The notes under the pieces are model-generated. The model ran no database searches, was not told the DNA's origin, and worked only from the letters and a program-made list of their open reading frames with translations. This document shows positions 1 to 11,557 of a stretch of 64,000 nt of DNA, piece by piece. Numbering within the stretch: position 1 is the first letter of the stretch; every line of letters begins with the position of its first letter. Both the position numbers and the translations under genes were made by a program. The DNA comes from a virus. Location of the stretch: the IMG/VR virus record IMGVR_UViG_3300037231_000119, positions 1 to 64,000 of that record. The stretch is one strand, 5' to 3'.

Positions 1-628
1 GTTTTAGGTGATACGGATGGCAGAAAAGGCTAACGATATTTGTTCTTTTAAGAACTGTCTGTTTTAGGTGATACGGATGGCAGAAAAGAAATAATGAACT
101 CTTTCTAAGACTTCTAGCTTGTTTTAGGTGATACGGATGGCAGAAAAGATGTCTGAACCTATTAAGAAACCCCCAGTTATGTTTTAGGTGATACGGATGG
201 CAGAAAAGATGATCAATCTCATCGACTGGGTCACCTATAGGTTTTAGGTGATACGGATGGCAGAAAAGTTTGGTAGGGTGGTAGATGCAACCGTGGCCGT
301 GTTTTAGGTGATACGGATGGCAGAAAAGAAAATGGAGTCTACTAAGAGCGCCTTGGGATCGTTTTAGGTGATACGGATGGCAGAAAAGAAGAAACATCAA
401 ATTATGGGTTCGCAGCCCCCGTTTTAGGTGATACGGATGGCGGAAAAGAGCAACTTGTGGGCTGGATTGGTTGGCGTAGGGTTTTAGGTGATACGGATGG
501 CAGAAAAGTTTCCTGGATCAACTTCTTAGTCGCGCTTTGTGTTTTAGGTGATACGGATGGCAGAAAAGAGCCAGCCATTGTTGATAAATGCTCTCTAAAC
601 GTTTTAGGTGATACGGATGGCAGAAAAG
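1..628. CRISPR. CRISPR-like array: 11 repeats GTTTTAGGTGATACGGATGGCAGAAAAG (28 bp) with 10 unique 32-bp spacers; may continue left of the window
   Basis: Exact 60-bp periodicity (repeats at 1, 61, ... 601). The repeat at 421 has one A>G change. All spacers differ. No cas genes in the window. Confidence 0.93.
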
Positions 629-3706: not shown

Positions 3707-6700
3707 TTATGATCCTATCAAGGTAACAACTATGTTGGACTGTTGGTTAATTACGAAAGCTTTTTGCCCCGTAACCAGTTTAATTTCGTCGTTTGCTACA
3801 GTGTACGCTGGACTTGTCAGAACTACTGAAGTTACACCGGGAATCGCCCTTACAGTCTCAACGATGCTACTCAAATCTAGACTTTGTCCGAGAGGATTGC
3901 TCAAAATGAGAGCGTAAACCGAACTTTGAATCTGAGAAGTAATCTGTGCAAAACTTACGCCGATATTAGTCCTAATAGAAAGAGCAATACTGACAGGCAA
4001 CAATAATGGTTCGCGAATAAAAATGTTGGTCCCGGCCGCATTAACCCCACTGTACGTGATTGCGTCTCGTGGATCGCCGTAAATGACCCTATTGGCTTGT
4101 CCAATCAATCCGGTATCATAGTTGTAAGCGTCCGTTCCAGTCTTAATGGTAACTGGGAAATTCAATTTTCCGAGTGCTGTCATTCCCACGTCTGCAGACA
4201 AGTTGATCTTATCAAACTGTGCTGAGGTGTTAAACGCGATATTGTTGAAAGTCAAAGATCCCGGATCCATCGCCGCATAAAGAACTTGTTTATATCCAGT
4301 ATAGGCCGTTCCTTCTTGCACTGAGAATGACACAAAGTTTCCAGCAAGGTTTGTGTTGAATTGTGTCGAGATGGTTCCTGTAATTATCGCCGTAGTAGGA
4401 TTCAAGACTTGAACTATGGTGTAAACTCCAGCATTCCCAGCGCCAACTACTGTTCCATTGACAACCAGTTTATCACCAGGAACGGTTGCATCATATGGGA
4501 AGAACTGAATTTGTGGGCGGCTAACAGAGAGGGTTACCGAAGAAAGTCCACTTTGAGTCACGCTAGTGGGATTGATTACGGTTAGGAATGTCATCTGTCC
4601 CGATTGCGTGACGGTGAAACTGAATGCGGCAGGCATCGAGACATCAACTGGGCTATTGGTAGCTGCGGGAACGGTAGCCGTTACAGTTACGACATTGGTT
4701 TGAGCTACATATGAGGAAGTCATGGCGGTCAGATGACCGTTGATGGCCGTATATGTTTCAGAAGCAACGGTAACAGCAGAATCAGAAGAATTGATAGCCA
4801 CTTCTATTCCCGTAAACCCACCAGGAGCAGGGTCGGTATTAGAGCCACCAGCAACATTATACCAAATGTAGTACTTATTGGCATTTCCACCGTTGTAAAG
4901 TTCAAAATAATCAGCTACTCCTGAAGAAGAGAAAGTAATTCCAGAAGGAAACGTGAATTGAACAACTTGCTGTTGGGAAGGTCCTGATTCGGTTACTACA
5001 AAGCTTCCTTGATTGGCAGTTTCAAATCCAGATCCGAAAGTTACGACATCTCCCGGCAGTACAGATCCCAACAAAGGAGCTGTTCCAACGCCAGTCCAAA
5101 CCAAGGTTTCTATCCCTCCTGCAGCCTCAACATTAAACTGAGTGGATGAACCATAACTAAAGCCCGTAACCGGATTAGTAACGCAAGTAACCTCTTCTTC
5201 CACGGTATCACTAGATAAGGGGAATTCTAGTTCTTTTGGATTCTCGTACCAAACACTATTTTGGTTTTCCCTAATAACTCTAAATTCACCCTGATTGAGT
5301 GGAGAGAATGGGGCCGATATGATTAGTGTATCGCCTTCTGAAACTGACGTAGTCGCAGTAAATTCTCCAGCAGTAACGATCGTGCCTGTTTCTGTAACCG
5401 CATTCGGATTATCAACCGTAAAGGATAGTCCGTTTGGAGCAACAGCAGACACTATGAACGTGCCATCATTTCCAGAATTAGCCAATCCTGTAATTGTGAT
5501 TATATCTCCGGGGGTCAAAGCCGCAAAGTTTGCATTATTGGCAACATCGGGCCCAGTCACCGTATTTATGGTGGTTATTTGACTTAGGGTTACTGCCCCG
5601 TTCAGTGCAATCAGACTACCATTAACAATTCCGCCAAGAGTGTTTGTTATGGAAGTATTGGCGACAATATTTCCTTCAAATGTTCCTGCATTTCCGGCAT
5701 TGATGGTCGCCGAAGAGCCGATGATCCAGAAAATGTCTGCAGCGGTGGCGCCGCCCGTGAGCGTAATCGTAGGGGTTCCACCAGCGCCAGTAGTCAGGGT
5801 AGAGGCCGTATAGATAATATACTGACCGGCACCATTGAAAGTGAGTGTTGCGGGACCAGAAGTAGCCAATGTTGCCGCACCGCTAGAGAACTTATAGGCT
5901 CCTGGCGTAAGTGTCTGACCATCTAATGCAGATGGAATAACTGTTCCTGCCAAACCTTGCGTCTGCATACTGGTAAAAGTAGATGATGCCGAGGATTGAG
6001 CAGTTGCTGCCGCCGCATTTCCTAGATTTGTTGCTCCTGAGACCGTAAATGTGCCAGTAACAGTGGAACCGGGACTTTCTCCTAAGTTTCCATTGATAAC
6101 GCTCGTACCGACACTGTTTGTGATTGCCGAACCTGCCAGGATTCCGTATGTGGCTGCGGTTCCCAATGGACTTGGTGGAGGAGCCGATGTAGGGCTCACA
6201 GAATAGGTACCATTTGAAGATACGTCTACTACCCAGCTTCCAGCATCATTGAAGTTTACCGCAGAGCTGAAGTTGGGAGAAGTTCCTACTCCATTCCAGC
6301 TTAAGCACGTGAGGGAGCCCTGTTTTTCTATTCTGAAAGTATTGCCTTCAATATTTAGTCCGCCTCTTGGAGAGCCAAAGTATCTTTGTCCCAGATCTTG
6401 ATTTAATAGCGTTACGGTTGATTGTCCAGCAATAGGGGTATTGCTAAGAACGGTAACGCTAGTATTGGCGGCGATTCCCGTATTCTTATTCTGAAAATTC
6501 TGAGCTTGAAGTCTAAACCATTGGTCGCTAGCTACGGCCTGACTAGCGATCTTATTGGCGGAAACTACCATCTCGTTATTGCCGATCAATTCACCAGAAG
6601 TCAGAATTGGGACAACATATTCGTTTCCACTACCACCAACTACTTGAATTGACCCTACAGACCCTATCGTATTGGTTGCGAGTTGCAACTTAGTTCCGCG

Positions 6701-9700
6701 ATCAGAAGTTTCAACAGTGCCAACGGTAGTAAATCCTGTTACGGCCAATATATTCCAGAAATCTTTAACCTGATCCGTGGTAGTTGGGATCAACATTACT
6801 TGATCTCCGGGAGTAAAGAATGAATATCCTGGAGCACTTGAATAAGAAAGGGGTTCTTTGAAAGTGAACTGTGGACTTCCAGAAACATTGGAACTAAAGA
6901 TCCAATTTACGCCGTCTTTCAGGGAGTAATTTTGCGTCGTAAACGAACTATCTTCAAAAGTGCTATTAGAAATAATTCCCGATCCATCCCCATTAACTAT
7001 AGTAGAAGTGAGATATTGACTTAAGTTCGCATTGACGTAGGTATTGATCGCCGAAGCAGTAGTTGGCGTAGAAACATAGAAATTCATTCCAGTAGCCACG
7101 GTTGTAACTGCGCCAGATTGTGCAATAGCCGTTCCAGTAGGCACCTGAACACTGAAAGATGTCGTGGTGGGCGTATATCCTACACCCATAGAGATGCGGA
7201 AAGTTCCGGTATTACTTACATTGAATCCGGTGCTAGTAGAAATATTTACAAATGCTCCGGATCCAAGGCCGACTGGAAGATTTGGGTTTGTTCCGGTTCC
7301 ATTCCAAGTATAAGTTACTTGATCAATTCCAGCCGTGGGAGTGTTGGAAGTAACAGTAACATTCCACTGTGTATTGGCGGCAATATTGGTAACTAGAGGC
7401 AATCCCGATATCAAACTGATTGCAATATTTACGGAGCCGTTAGTAGTTACGACTGAACTAATTGGTTGATTGGCAGAAGATGGATAAACATACGAGACAT
7501 TTATCATCTCACCACTACGACCCCAAACAGCGGATCTATAGAGAAGAGACGTGTTAGAATTTGATCCGGACAATACGTATTTCGCTTGCAGGAGAGCCTT
7601 GTAATTTGCGAAGAAATCCGTAGGCGTAGAAAAATTTGCAGCAAAGTTGGCATTTGTTCCAGCAGCTACGTCATAGGCATTAAAACTATAGTTGTTAGAT
7701 GGATAGGTGCTGTTTATTAAGGCCGCTCTAAAAAGAGGCATCGTATACGTTTCACCTACCGTATTATTGTCAACTATGGCCACTACCGTATCATTGAAGC
7801 CAAAGTCCAGAGGATTGGCCACGAAATATCTATCGGCAACCCTCAAACGTCTCACATCTGGATATACGGGAAGGATAGTAACAACGTCTCCTGAGAGGGC
7901 AGACATTTGCACGTTTTCCAAAGTGGGTTGTTCGTCGTCTATGAGTCCAGCACCAGTCGTAATTAGAGTAGTACCGTCGACGATAGTGCTCGTAACCGTA
8001 AAAAGAAGACCGTTGGTACTGTAAACCGCACCAGCTGTAGCATTTGCGGAATTGACCGTGAAAGTATATTGGGAAGGTTGTACCGGAACAGTATATGCTG
8101 TAAAGGAAATGGTCGCGTCTCCCGTTCCATTCACCAGTGTAAGAACTCCTGCAGATGGTCCGGAAGCTGGAACCGTTATGGTAGTCGCGGCACTGAGAGT
8201 AACTGCCCCATTGAGGGCTATAAGTCTTCCATTGACCGTTCCGCCGATGGTGTCAGTGATCGATGTATTGGCTAAGATAGTTCCTTGGAAGGTACCAGCG
8301 GATCCAGAGTTAATGGTGGCCGAGGAACCTACCAACCAATAAACGTTGGTTGCGAGTGCTCCGCCAGTTAGTGTAATGGTCGGAGTACCACCAGCACCAG
8401 TAACTAAAGTGGATGCGGTCTTAATGACGAAGACATCGGTCGAAGAACCACTTAAAGTGAGGGTGCCTGGACCAGATGCAGCCAAGGAAGCGGCGCCCGT
8501 ACTGTAGTATCCAGCGGTCAAAGTCTGACCATCTAAAACAGCCGAGATGGTAGTGGAAGAATGGGCCGATAGGGTGGTGTATACAGAAAGTGCATCCGTC
8601 TGCGCAGACATGGCGGTCGAGTCGTCATTATGAATGGTTCCAGTCACTGTCCATCCACCAGGAGTAATAGAAGTTCCTGGAGCAATCCCCACATCTCCAG
8701 TAATAACGCTTGAACCCGTATTTGTGATGGCCGAACCGGCTAAAATGGCAAACGGAGCTGAAGCGGTAAGTAGGCTACCACCACCACCGCCTGAAATTAT
8801 AGGCGTAACTCCGTATGGGTTCAGAAATTGGATCATCTCATTTGGATCAAATTGAGATAGGGACTCTGAAGAGGTGAAGTTAGTCAAATAGGAATAGGGA
8901 GGTTCAGCGTAGTTATCTGCGCTAATGGTAGAATGAAAGAATAGGGGGAGTTCTGAAGTTAAAGCCTGAGTTTCATAGAACGCGATAAGGGCAGTTTGGC
9001 TTGCACTATTAACGCCGCCAACGAAACCAAGAAGGGCCCCTGAAGCATCGGCCGTAACTACTACTATTTGACCTTCCGTATTTAGGGTATTTGTTACAAC
9101 CGTTATATTCGTATTATCAAAAACTCCAAAAGTAAGTTCATCCGTTTGGGATTGAAGTTCGCTGGCTATAACATCTAAGGTGCTCGTCCCTGCAGTGACC
9201 GTGAATTTCTGTGGTACGTTGGCAGTTCTAACCACTACAAATCCCTGAACAAAAGTGGCGTTCGAGACTGGAGTAGCAAGAGCATATTCAGCAGCAGTGA
9301 TTTTTATGTCTAGAGTAGATCCGGATTGCGCATGAACTCTTCCTTCCAACTGATCGGTCGTCGGAACTTGAGGGGACCAAACTATGACATAATCGCCAGG
9401 AATTACATTTGAGAAGGCAGAAGAAACATTGGAGGTAAATCTAACGATATTTGGGGAAACTAGCGATACGGACAAAAGAGATCCGGACTGGATAGTAGGA
9501 ATAACGACAGCATCTGTATCAATGGCGATCCAAATATGGGCATCGGTAGCCAGAGTTGCACTTCCTGAAGGGACCGATCCAGAATCAATATTCGCTTGGG
9601 TAATAAGTGTACCGGCAGAAAGAGAATCGCCTTTTACTAGGGCGCTAACCAATTCAATCTGGGCGGTGTTTCTGTCCAGGGTATACTGAGAAGCGACACC

Positions 9701-11557
9701 AGTAGAGGCGAGGTCTGAATTGTTAATCATCCCCTTTGTGATGAGAGAGGAAGGATTAGAGCCAGTGTTAATTACGGTAATCTGAGCCCTATCAACCGGT
9801 CCAAGATTACTTGAAAATTCGATAGTAGATCCTACGATAGATGCTGTAATTCCAGTAAGAAGGTCATTGAAAACATTAACCCATGCCTGTAAGCTATTTG
9901 ATGCGGCGGCGGTAGTATAGGTACCTTCGGCGATGAATTGGGCATTAGTGATAGTATAGGTTATGGGGGCCGTTCCATCTACTGAAAAGCTGAGCGTATC
10001 CCCTTGAGCTATCGTATTGGACCAAAGACTTTGTGGCTGTGTGAAGATAGAGGCGGTTGTACCATCTTCAATGAGAAGAATTCCATTTTTATAAAGACGT
10101 AAGGTCTCTTCTTTTTGTGAAGGAAATTGTAGGATTGTGTTTGCGTCTATAACCAGAGAACTGGCCGGAGTCGTGATCTGGATAACATTGGTAAGTTCAT
10201 CTGCCGGGCGAATAACAACGAATGTTCCATTACCAGCGGTAACGGCTTCATAGTTCAACGTCGTATCAAAGTTAATGCTGGCGCAGACCTCATAGGCGGT
10301 AGCGGAACCAGGATTGGCGAAGTCGGTGGAAGCAAAGGTGTGGTTGTAAGTAATATCGCCTACGATTACTGCCAGAACTTCTCCACCATTAAGATCGAAG
10401 GGTTCAGAAGCAACAGTTTGAAGGAGTGCCTTAGTGACAGAAGTCTGAGTTCCGCCTGTCACTAATTGAAAAAACTTTTCTCCGCCGAGTGCTGAATTAA
10501 CAATAGCTTCAATCGCAACTCCAGTATGGGTAGCTTCCAAAATTGCCCCATTATCGATATAGACCGTGGTATTGGTAGCGGAATTTAGAACGTCGGTGCT
10601 GACAATGGTGTCTGAACTGGTGGGACTTTGAACGCCCTTCAAAGCACTCTCGATCGCCGTGACAGTACCCAATCCAGTCGATGCTAAGGCATTCTGAACA
10701 CGAACTCTGAGTTGATTATCCGTCTCGAGATCTTGGCCAGTAGTTACGTCAAGCGGATTAGTGACTGAGGCATTAGGGAGTCCGGGAGGGTTACCAGAAA
10801 ATTCGGATATAGCGCCACCTGGAACGTTAGCTGCAGATCCAGGAAGAAGGGCTACGATTGGGACGTTAGTAACTGTGGTTTCTCCATCCAAAATAACGCC
10901 CTGCTGGGTAACAGAATATTGGATGTCAGCCGTAGTCCCAATGCCGGGAGAAATAACGATAGTGTTAACAGGGACGGTTCTAACTCCACCCTGAGATAAA
11001 ATAACGGTCTCTGAGATATTATGAAACTTGGTAGTATTAGACGAAAGAGTGATCGCGTAATAAGAACCAATCGGAGTAATCGCAGAATAGGCAATCGGGC
11101 CCTCTATATTGACACTGCCTCTTCCCAAGTACAAACTTCCTGTGGCGGGGAAAGAAGCGGCATTTGATACAAAGATAGTGGTCGAGCCCGGTATAGGAGG
11201 ATTTACGCCAGCATATATGAAAGTGGAGATTTTTTTGAAAGAGAGATCGACGACGGTAACTTGGCTGGTAGCGGTTACTGCTGGAAGAGGAGGTACGCCA
11301 TACTCGATGGCTAGATTTTGTAGGGCTGGGCCCTGAGCCCTTTGCAGGCTAAAATTCATGAGGATCTGGAAGACATCTCCGCTGGATCTCGCAACCATAA
11401 GGGCGACTAGCTGCATAAAGCTAGTATTCGCGGATCCAGTATTAAGATCATTGATTCCTAGCGTTGAACCATATGAAGAAAGCATTTGTCCAAGTATCTG
11501 TTCGTAACTAAGGGGCTGCGGAAGGCTCGAACTTGGGGGTGTAGGATTTGATGCCAT
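3707..11557 (-). CDS. giant baseplate-J-like protein (2616 aa) with two inserted DUF3494 ice-binding-like domains
   Basis: J-like N-terminus (AQGPALQNLA...GQDLETDNQLRVR...GTVTAI) and C-terminus (LGQSLDLSSIVETVRAIPGV). DUF3494 motifs FAILAGSAITNTG...YWLVGSSATI...FQGTILANTSIT...NGRLIALNGAVTL at about 8170-8770 and 5560-6170. Confidence 0.85.
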   Translation of the reverse strand: MASNPTPPSSSLPQPLSYEQILGQMLSSYGSTLGINDLNTGSANTSFMQLVALMVARSSGDVFQILMNFSLQRAQGPALQNLAIEYGVPPLPAVTATSQVTVVDLSFKKISTFIYAGVNPPIPGSTTIFVSNAASFPATGSLYLGRGSVNIEGPIAYSAITPIGSYYAITLSSNTTKFHNISETVILSQGGVRTVPVNTIVISPGIGTTADIQYSVTQQGVILDGETTVTNVPIVALLPGSAANVPGGAISEFSGNPPGLPNASVTNPLDVTTGQDLETDNQLRVRVQNALASTGLGTVTAIESALKGVQSPTSSDTIVSTDVLNSATNTTVYIDNGAILEATHTGVAIEAIVNSALGGEKFFQLVTGGTQTSVTKALLQTVASEPFDLNGGEVLAVIVGDITYNHTFASTDFANPGSATAYEVCASINFDTTLNYEAVTAGNGTFVVIRPADELTNVIQITTPASSLVIDANTILQFPSQKEETLRLYKNGILLIEDGTTASIFTQPQSLWSNTIAQGDTLSFSVDGTAPITYTITNAQFIAEGTYTTAAASNSLQAWVNVFNDLLTGITASIVGSTIEFSSNLGPVDRAQITVINTGSNPSSLITKGMINNSDLASTGVASQYTLDRNTAQIELVSALVKGDSLSAGTLITQANIDSGSVPSGSATLATDAHIWIAIDTDAVVIPTIQSGSLLSVSLVSPNIVRFTSNVSSAFSNVIPGDYVIVWSPQVPTTDQLEGRVHAQSGSTLDIKITAAEYALATPVSNATFVQGFVVVRTANVPQKFTVTAGTSTLDVIASELQSQTDELTFGVFDNTNITVVTNTLNTEGQIVVVTADASGALLGFVGGVNSASQTALIAFYETQALTSELPLFFHSTISADNYAEPPYSYLTNFTSSESLSQFDPNEMIQFLNPYGVTPIISGGGGGSLLTASAPFAILAGSAITNTGSSVITGDVGIAPGTSITPGGWTVTGTIHNDDSTAMSAQTDALSVYTTLSAHSSTTISAVLDGQTLTAGYYSTGAASLAASGPGTLTLSGSSTDVFVIKTASTLVTGAGGTPTITLTGGALATNVYWLVGSSATINSGSAGTFQGTILANTSITDTIGGTVNGRLIALNGAVTLSAATTITVPASGPSAGVLTLVNGTGDATISFTAYTVPVQPSQYTFTVNSANATAGAVYSTNGLLFTVTSTIVDGTTLITTGAGLIDDEQPTLENVQMSALSGDVVTILPVYPDVRRLRVADRYFVANPLDFGFNDTVVAIVDNNTVGETYTMPLFRAALINSTYPSNNYSFNAYDVAAGTNANFAANFSTPTDFFANYKALLQAKYVLSGSNSNTSLLYRSAVWGRSGEMINVSYVYPSSANQPISSVVTTNGSVNIAISLISGLPLVTNIAANTQWNVTVTSNTPTAGIDQVTYTWNGTGTNPNLPVGLGSGAFVNISTSTGFNVSNTGTFRISMGVGYTPTTTSFSVQVPTGTAIAQSGAVTTVATGMNFYVSTPTTASAINTYVNANLSQYLTSTIVNGDGSGIISNSTFEDSSFTTQNYSLKDGVNWIFSSNVSGSPQFTFKEPLSYSSAPGYSFFTPGDQVMLIPTTTDQVKDFWNILAVTGFTTVGTVETSDRGTKLQLATNTIGSVGSIQVVGGSGNEYVVPILTSGELIGNNEMVVSANKIASQAVASDQWFRLQAQNFQNKNTGIAANTSVTVLSNTPIAGQSTVTLLNQDLGQRYFGSPRGGLNIEGNTFRIEKQGSLTCLSWNGVGTSPNFSSAVNFNDAGSWVVDVSSNGTYSVSPTSAPPPSPLGTAATYGILAGSAITNSVGTSVINGNLGESPGSTVTGTFTVSGATNLGNAAAATAQSSASSTFTSMQTQGLAGTVIPSALDGQTLTPGAYKFSSGAATLATSGPATLTFNGAGQYIIYTASTLTTGAGGTPTITLTGGATAADIFWIIGSSATINAGNAGTFEGNIVANTSITNTLGGIVNGSLIALNGAVTLSQITTINTVTGPDVANNANFAALTPGDIITITGLANSGNDGTFIVSAVAPNGLSFTVDNPNAVTETGTIVTAGEFTATTSVSEGDTLIISAPFSPLNQGEFRVIRENQNSVWYENPKELEFPLSSDTVEEEVTCVTNPVTGFSYGSSTQFNVEAAGGIETLVWTGVGTAPLLGSVLPGDVVTFGSGFETANQGSFVVTESGPSQQQVVQFTFPSGITFSSSGVADYFELYNGGNANKYYIWYNVAGGSNTDPAPGGFTGIEVAINSSDSAVTVASETYTAINGHLTAMTSSYVAQTNVVTVTATVPAATNSPVDVSMPAAFSFTVTQSGQMTFLTVINPTSVTQSGLSSVTLSVSRPQIQFFPYDATVPGDKLVVNGTVVGAGNAGVYTIVQVLNPTTAIITGTISTQFNTNLAGNFVSFSVQEGTAYTGYKQVLYAAMDPGSLTFNNIAFNTSAQFDKINLSADVGMTALGKLNFPVTIKTGTDAYNYDTGLIGQANRVIYGDPRDAITYSGVNAAGTNIFIREPLLLPVSIALSIRTNIGVSFAQITSQIQSSVYALILSNPLGQSLDLSSIVETVRAIPGVTSVVLTSPAYTVANDEIKLVTGQKAFVINQQSNIVVTLIGS

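Follow-up and report, generated by a model that had tools for sequence, protein, structure and literature searches.

The CRISPR array that opens the analyzed window (the first 64 kb of an IMG/VR phage contig of 162,446 bp) very likely belongs to a self-contained miniature type V system, dependent on tracrRNA and encoded by a tailed phage of 162 kb. This accounts for a phage array that had seemed an orphan and beyond classification. Positions 1–628 hold 11 direct repeats of 28 bp (starts at 1, 61, ... 601) with 32-bp spacers and an exact 60-bp period, a pattern far above chance, and the earlier description of a phage-borne array with a 28-bp repeat was confirmed for all 11 copies. The repeats are identical in 10 cases out of 11, the sole variant (421–448) carrying one A>G. 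Five further repeat copies lie at the far contig end, which carries three extra repeat-spacer units together with the cas operon; the complete array (window plus far contig end) comprises 14 repeats and 13 spacers. The elements of the system are listed below, in window positions or, where marked G000:C1, in positions on the contig.

1–127, + strand: terminal-overlap stretch, two repeat-spacer units and the start of a third repeat, identical to the contig's last 127 bp
1–628, + strand: repeats 4–14 of the 14-repeat CRISPR array, 28-bp repeat and 32-bp spacers
421–448, + strand: variant repeat with A>G at its position 22, where the tail segment pairing with the tracrRNA hairpin loop begins
G000:C1 159282–160781, + strand: cas12, 499 aa, TnpB-like
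G000:C1 160778–161611, + strand: cas1, 277 aa, TIGR00287
G000:C1 161602–161871, + strand: probable cas2, 89 aa, assigned from its position and weak matches of its orthologue
G000:C1 about 161902–162114, + strand: tracrRNA gene, ~213 nt, conserved RNA with a terminator at its end
G000:C1 from 162140, + strand: array repeats 1–3, outside the window, at the opposite contig end

The Cas12 effector and its tracrRNA

The 499-aa protein contains the Pfam Cas12f1-like TNB domain (E = 3.2e-18) and bears the TnpB signature, scoring 114.6 bits against the cut-off of 100 for NCBIfam guided_TnpB (NF040570). Of the solved structures, RdCas12n (PDB 9J09; PMC12216341) matches its sequence best, with E = 2.8e-19 over the C-terminal half only. 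In a fold search with an AF2 model of the protein (pLDDT 69), TnpB and Cas12f lead with E of about 1e-15, and the lower matches include Cas12p, Fanzor2, TranC, and Cas12m. The best PADLOC profile was Cas12u4 (151 bits). However, annotated IS605 TnpBs, taken as a control, score 185–285 bits on the same profile; as ordinary TnpBs outscore the phage protein, the match is not specific and Cas12u4 was rejected as a subtype. The Cas12f cut-offs were missed by far, with 67.6 vs. 450 bits for NCBIfam Cas12f2 and 72.8 vs. 350 bits for C2c8. Judged by these profiles, the effector reaches the threshold of no named subtype, the numbered groups V-U6 to V-U45 (PMC10691335) being outside the comparison.

Among 5.8 billion proteins, six close relatives were found (33–51% identity, 214–508 bits), and the remaining matches, at 134 bits or less, are TnpB. 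The resulting family of seven proteins (424–499 aa) occurs mostly in relatives of Myxococcus phage Mx1; the phage itself has one such cas12-like gene. The RuvC D/E/D triad and the CxxC...CxxC zinc finger are invariant in 7 of 7 members, and the split RuvC triad and TNB zinc finger by which type V effectors are recognized are both present. The context is not that of a TnpB transposon: no tnpA was seen among the scanned neighboring ORFs, a tracrRNA and a multi-spacer array take the place of a single contiguous omega-RNA, and a cas1 gene is attached. The array lies downstream of the effector gene on the same strand, as in type V loci. Further upstream of cas12 stand phage genes and an ORF for a transglycosylase with an SLT domain.

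Between the end of the cas operon and repeat 1, which share a strand, lie 268 non-coding bp. Comparison of six loci showed that a conserved RNA gene, roughly 130–215 nt long and closed by a terminator, occupies the non-coding stretch; in the phage, the strong terminator hairpin (L009:19638–19660) stands about 33 nt before repeat 1. In the covariance model built from the six loci, stem 1 (the 5' hairpin) covaries at two pairs. An Rfam search of the RNA returned no family, and the model (R1), run over TnpB loci totaling about 1.6 Mb and over 131 genomes from the class of the metagenome-assembled genome (MAG) carrying locus L107, found the family loci only.

Two pairings link this RNA to the repeat. 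The first involves an anti-repeat, the 8–9 nt after a conserved GAARCAGKAA motif, which in each locus is exactly complementary to the center of the repeat: CATCCGTA opposite TACGGATG in this phage, CGTACATA opposite TATGTACG in L011, CCATACACA opposite TGTGTATGG in L014, TTATGCGT opposite ACGCATAA in L101, and CCATATAC opposite GTATATGG in L107. The longest cognate Watson-Crick runs in the six loci are 8, 8, 9, 8, 7, and 8 nt, whereas non-cognate anti-repeat/repeat runs are mostly 2–5 nt, rising to 5–9 nt within the trio L014, L106, and L107 with their similar repeats. The anti-repeat was revealed only by comparison with relatives; in a single-locus duplex scan all matches were at background (about -20 kcal/mol) and the true 8-nt site was not distinct. 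The second pairing joins the 6-nt loop of the 5' hairpin to the last 7 nt of the repeat, with one A bulged. Loop and tail change together, as CUUUCU/AGAAAAG, CCUUAC/GUAAAGG, CUUCAU/AUGAAAG, and CCUCAC/GUGAAGG, although this test is less discriminating than that of the anti-repeat because some non-cognate pairs reach 6/6 when G-U is allowed. Both pairings covary with the repeat over six loci, comprising about four independent variants, and at the level of sequence the RNA has what defines a tracrRNA, being separately encoded and containing an anti-repeat.

Between them, the two contacts take up the 17 nt at the 3' end of the repeat; its first 11 nt stay free and are presumably trimmed. Since the tracrRNA would supply the structure, the repeat can do without a hairpin of its own. 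The leader of ~30 nt between the terminator and repeat 1 is also conserved (AAAAGTTAA ... TTAAT.ATAG; G000:C1 162115–162139 and the equivalents in L011, L014, L106, and L107) and may hold an array promoter or an integration signal; no sigma-70 promoter was called in the leader before repeat 1. That no array promoter was identified and that a strong terminator precedes the array so closely both count against the proposed reading.

From these elements we infer how transcription, RNA processing, DNA cleavage, and spacer acquisition might proceed. The array is probably transcribed from the + strand, in which case the crRNA would consist of the 3' part of the repeat followed by the downstream spacer. 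The ~213-nt tracrRNA would make two contacts with each repeat. The 8-nt anti-repeat that immediately precedes its terminator would bind repeat positions 12–19, and the 6-nt loop of its 5' hairpin would bind the last 7 repeat nucleotides (one A bulged), forming a pseudoknot beside the guide. The tracrRNA:crRNA pair would then be loaded into Cas12, the RuvC site of which would cut DNA that matches the spacer and bears a PAM. Cas1 and the probable Cas2, of the I-E/I-F clade, would add new spacers and set the 28+32 spacing. The family offers very small (424–499 aa) candidate RNA-guided nucleases with a defined candidate guide design.

Related loci, cassette mobility, and spacers

The organization of the related loci varies. 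L011 and L012 contain cas12, cas1, cas2, the non-coding stretch, and then a 20-repeat 28+32 array; L013 and L104 contain cas12 followed by cas1. In L014, L106, and L107, cas12 and the non-coding stretch are followed by short or degenerate arrays with no cas1, and in L101 by a single repeat. Loci without cas1 still retain cas12, the tracrRNA, and repeats. In L101 (2826–3080), the would-be guide after the single repeat extends into the ribosome-binding site and start codon of the gene that follows, which looks like an omega-RNA-like or regulatory arrangement. In the MAG-borne L107 (5998–7289), the cas12 frame is split into ORFs of 260 and 142 aa, with the tracrRNA and a 3-repeat mini-array intact, and the effector may be decaying. 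The small family seems to preserve stages of the TnpB-to-CRISPR transition side by side, from the single repeat (L101) through degenerate mini-arrays without cas1 (L014, L106, L107) to full arrays with adaptation genes (the phage and L011). It provides a compact natural example of TnpB-type nucleases becoming adaptive CRISPR systems inside phage genomes.

The flanks of the cassette in the phage include the following:

G000:C1 159205–159279 (L009:16759–16833): duplicated source, the 3' end of a 115-aa phage gene upstream of cas12
629–703, + strand: gene-end remnant copy of ~75 bp, about 87% identical to the 3'-terminal part of the 115-aa gene that directly precedes cas12
709–894, + strand: cysteine-rich phage ORF of 61 aa, flanking the cassette on the right and outside the CRISPR system

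The ~75-bp direct duplication brackets the whole cas12-cas1-cas2-tracrRNA-array cassette, as would be expected of an insertion or recombination scar. Positions 629–660, the 32 bp after the last repeat, were considered as a further spacer and rejected, since alignment and BLAST place them within the gene-end copy. The ORF at 709–894 is 75% identical to a 62-aa ORF that in L013 lies between the homologue of the 115-aa gene and cas12. In that locus, the flanking genes of which are 70–91% identical to those of the phage, the homologues of the 115-aa gene and of the ORF at 709–894 are adjacent and the cassette stands one gene further downstream; it has therefore moved or been exchanged between closely related phages. 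In L011 and L107 the cassette is found elsewhere, flanked by a helicase gene at one end and by chaperonin and portal genes at the other. It is an accessory module; no relative with an "empty site" lacking the cassette turned up in a search. Between the phage and L013, Cas1 is 62% identical and Cas12 only 39%, and Cas12 either evolves much faster than Cas1 or was swapped.

The window encodes baseplate proteins, a ribonucleotide reductase, and an HNH endonuclease. Among deposited phages, only Myxococcus phage Mx1 has a homologue of the 869-aa baseplate protein (30% identity over 91% of its length); the phage described here is a tailed one, distantly related to Mx1. Locus L107 is carried in the MAG "Deltaproteobacteria bacterium bog_1112," and a Myxococcota-related host is plausible. 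Two further ORFs of the phage are worth recording. The 2,616-aa ORF at 3707–11557 (- strand), with a baseplate wedge subunit as its only PHROG match (residues 190–354), is predicted to be a giant baseplate or tail-fiber fusion protein. A 288-aa ORF among the tail genes (G000:C1 156037–156903; L009:13591–14457, - strand) has a weakly REase_MTES_1575 endonuclease-like C-terminus and is absent from the otherwise collinear L013.

The spacers gave few clues to the target. The earlier note had noticed no spacer match within the window, and this holds across the whole genome of the phage and for all fetched loci; the L011 spacers do not match this phage either. The search for targets, PAM, and strand bias that it had recommended yielded no credible protospacer: nothing credible among INPHARED phage records, no match in IMG/VR for the first 24 nt of spacers 1–3, and chance-level matches only in the 131 genomes from the class of L107's MAG. 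Spacer 7 agrees with an ABC-F ATPase gene in L107's MAG at 23/32 positions; this match was judged to be chance, because its per-genome E-value is 0.002 with 131 genomes examined and the BLAST alignment takes in 3 bases of the repeat. By analogy with the CRISPR systems of other phages, a rival mobile element or a host defense element is the probable target. The first base of 32 spacers from the phage and L011 (window 29–600, G000:C1 162168–162319, and L011:12810–13918) is A in 15, T in 11, G in 6, and C in none. The chance of zero initial C at about 21% C is roughly 5e-4, and this absence hints at a constraint on the repeat-spacer junction or on prespacer choice.

The cassette could also be RNA-guided with a role other than interference, acting as a guide-directed repressor or serving its own mobility (homing), by analogy with TldR, Cas12m, and TnpB. 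The ~75-bp duplication that brackets it, the different neighboring sites in related phages, the single repeat of L101 with a "guide" that runs into the start of the next gene, and the searches in which phage or plasmid protospacers were not found are all in line with such a role. However, the RuvC triad and zinc finger are invariant, unlike in TldR and most Cas12m; the presence of Cas1, the probable Cas2, and a varied set of 13 to 19 spacers suggests that foreign DNA is acquired adaptively; and no spacer matches the phage's own genome. We consider this explanation unlikely.

Array geometry, adaptation genes, and the contig junction

The repeat as RNA is essentially unstructured. Folded alone, the + strand has a minimum free energy of -2.1 kcal/mol (z = -0.9) and the - strand one of 0 kcal/mol, which upholds the earlier view of a nearly unstructured repeat. 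The 28-bp repeat and ~32-bp spacer lengths are, as previously pointed out, those of type I-F arrays; the stable hairpin recognized by Cas6f is lacking on both strands, so the reported absence of a partner stem for Cas6f is also borne out. The reverse-strand end had been likened to Cas13 repeats without their stem-loop; there is indeed no stem, and the repeat is not a Cas13 substrate. Because no stem is present and the neighboring effector is Cas12, both the Cas13 and the Cas6f readings of the reverse strand were rejected. No match was found to any of the known repeat families tested, and the repeat pattern searched in IMG/VR returned nothing. The earlier sense that the repeat is atypical was right; the operon next to it is very likely that of a miniature type V system.

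The cas12 and cas1 reading frames overlap by 4 bp, and those of cas1 and the 89-aa ORF by 10 bp. The 277-aa ORF scores 137.3 bits (cut-off 71.7) with TIGR00287, the generic Cas1 equivalog, and stays below the subtype cut-offs (136 vs. 215.6 bits for I-E and 104 vs. 150 bits for I-F). Its nearest solved structures are 8k21 and 4w8k, followed by the Cas1 proteins of E. coli (I-E) and P. aeruginosa (I-F), and these matches identify it as a Cas1 of the I-E/I-F clade. The 89-aa ORF is a probable Cas2. The phage protein itself gave no match to Cas2 models in profile searches, and its AF2 model (pLDDT 55) was left out of use. It is 52% identical to an orthologue at the same place in L012, which shows weak, below-threshold similarity to I-E Cas2 in PF09707 (E = 0.0019, 18.7 vs. 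24.7 bits) and a weak match to PADLOC Cas2 (E = 1.9e-4). The best explanation of the I-F-like 28+32 spacing lies in this Cas1 and the probable Cas2 rather than in a type I effector.

The same spacing and the same Cas1 would also fit a type I-F/I-E-style array with Cas1-Cas2 that uses the Cascade and Cas6 of the host, the TnpB-like gene being an unrelated transposon passenger, and borrowing of host I-E adaptation has been proposed for the Cas12r arrays of Thermus phages (10.64898/2026.04.20.719267). This is very improbable. The genes beside the array are cas12, cas1, and the 89-aa cas2-like ORF, with no csy/cas6f, cas2-3, Cascade, or Cas3 genes among them; neither strand of the repeat forms a Cas6-type hairpin; the 4-bp frame overlap couples cas12 to cas1; the cas12-tracrRNA-repeat trio is kept in loci without cas1; the tracrRNA covaries with the repeat; and no tnpA was seen among the scanned neighboring ORFs.

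The link between the array and the operon depends on the ends of the contig. Its last 127 bp are an exact copy of its first 127 bp and include two unique 32-nt spacers, and the assembly therefore closes on itself inside the array. Positions 1–127 mark the opening point of a circular or terminally redundant assembly. The cas genes are absent from the window because the contig was opened within the array, which calls for caution in window-based scans, where such an opening separates an array from its cas genes. The earlier note was right that no cas gene is in view in the window and that the effector could lie to its left; it does so across the circular junction, where the cas operon is directly upstream, which means that the array is no orphan and does not have to rely on the host. 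By the earlier note's own standard, a canonical operon directly upstream with a repeat of a known family would have refuted it; this came about by half, since an operon was found but a non-canonical one, and the repeat matched no family tested. That the junction is an assembly artefact, joining a window array and a far-end cas operon from different molecules or strains, is barely credible: the IMG/VR label of the record is "linear" and arrays often break assemblies, but the 127-bp overlap includes two unique spacers and not repeats alone, and L011 and L012, the repeat of which differs from that of the phage in 5 central bases only, keep the cas12-cas1-cas2-tracrRNA-array order on uninterrupted contigs.

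Comparison with known systems

Cas12n, which is type V-N and was formerly named V-U4, has an A-rich 5' PAM (AAN). The phage locus resembles it in the miniature TnpB-like effector and the predicted dependence on tracrRNA. However, only the RuvC/TNB half of the phage Cas12 aligns to RdCas12n, and the tracrRNA of Cas12n overlaps its ORF (PMC12216341), whereas that of the phage is a separate gene after cas2. In contrast to Cas12n, the phage locus also has its own cas1 and a probable cas2.

Cas12f uses a guide with a long scaffold RNA, a pseudoknot-type pairing beside the guide, and a second repeat:anti-repeat duplex. Cas12f and TnpB (8J12, 8H1J, 8IAZ) are the top fold matches of the phage Cas12, and the design of the phage tracrRNA resembles both the dual guides of Cas12f and the omega-RNA pseudoknot of TnpB, with unusually short helices. 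The phage system differs from Cas12f in its 28-bp repeat, in duplexes of 8 bp and of 6 bp with a bulge, and in an adaptation module of the class 1 type. It differs from TnpB in having no tnpA among the neighbors scanned and in dividing the guide RNA between a tracrRNA and crRNAs encoded by the array. Type I-F and I-E systems, including the I-F system of Vibrio phage ICP1, share with it the 28-bp repeat, the 32-bp spacers, and a Cas1 of the I-E/I-F clade; the phage array has no adjoining Cascade, Cas6, or Cas3, and its repeat has no Cas6 hairpin.

The phage locus is the same kind of system as the known phage-borne compact Cas12s. CasPhi and CasLambda are likewise small Cas12 nucleases carried by phages. 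The "hacker" Cas12p (bioRxiv 10.1101/2025.01.20.633832) is phage-borne and has a tracrRNA, as here, but its repeats are of 37 nt and it is only a distant fold match of the phage Cas12. The Cas12r of Thermus phages (564 aa; 10.64898/2026.04.20.719267) has I-E-like spacing, with 29-bp repeats and 32–33-bp spacers, and, unlike the phage locus, neither a tracrRNA nor cas1/cas2. MvCas12m of myxophage MV-1 (610 aa; 10.64898/2026.09.14.751636) has no cas1/cas2 and no recognizable tracrRNA. The combination of an effector with its own Cas1 and probable Cas2 and a tracrRNA is absent from Cas12p, Cas12r, and MvCas12m. Type V systems arose from TnpB many times, and adaptation modules were captured at least 12 times (PMC10691335). 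The locus may, as a tentative proposal, represent a type V subtype not yet described, combining a TnpB-grade effector of 424–499 aa with a captured class 1 Cas1-Cas2 module of the I-E/I-F clade and a split omega-like RNA that contacts the repeat at two very short sites.
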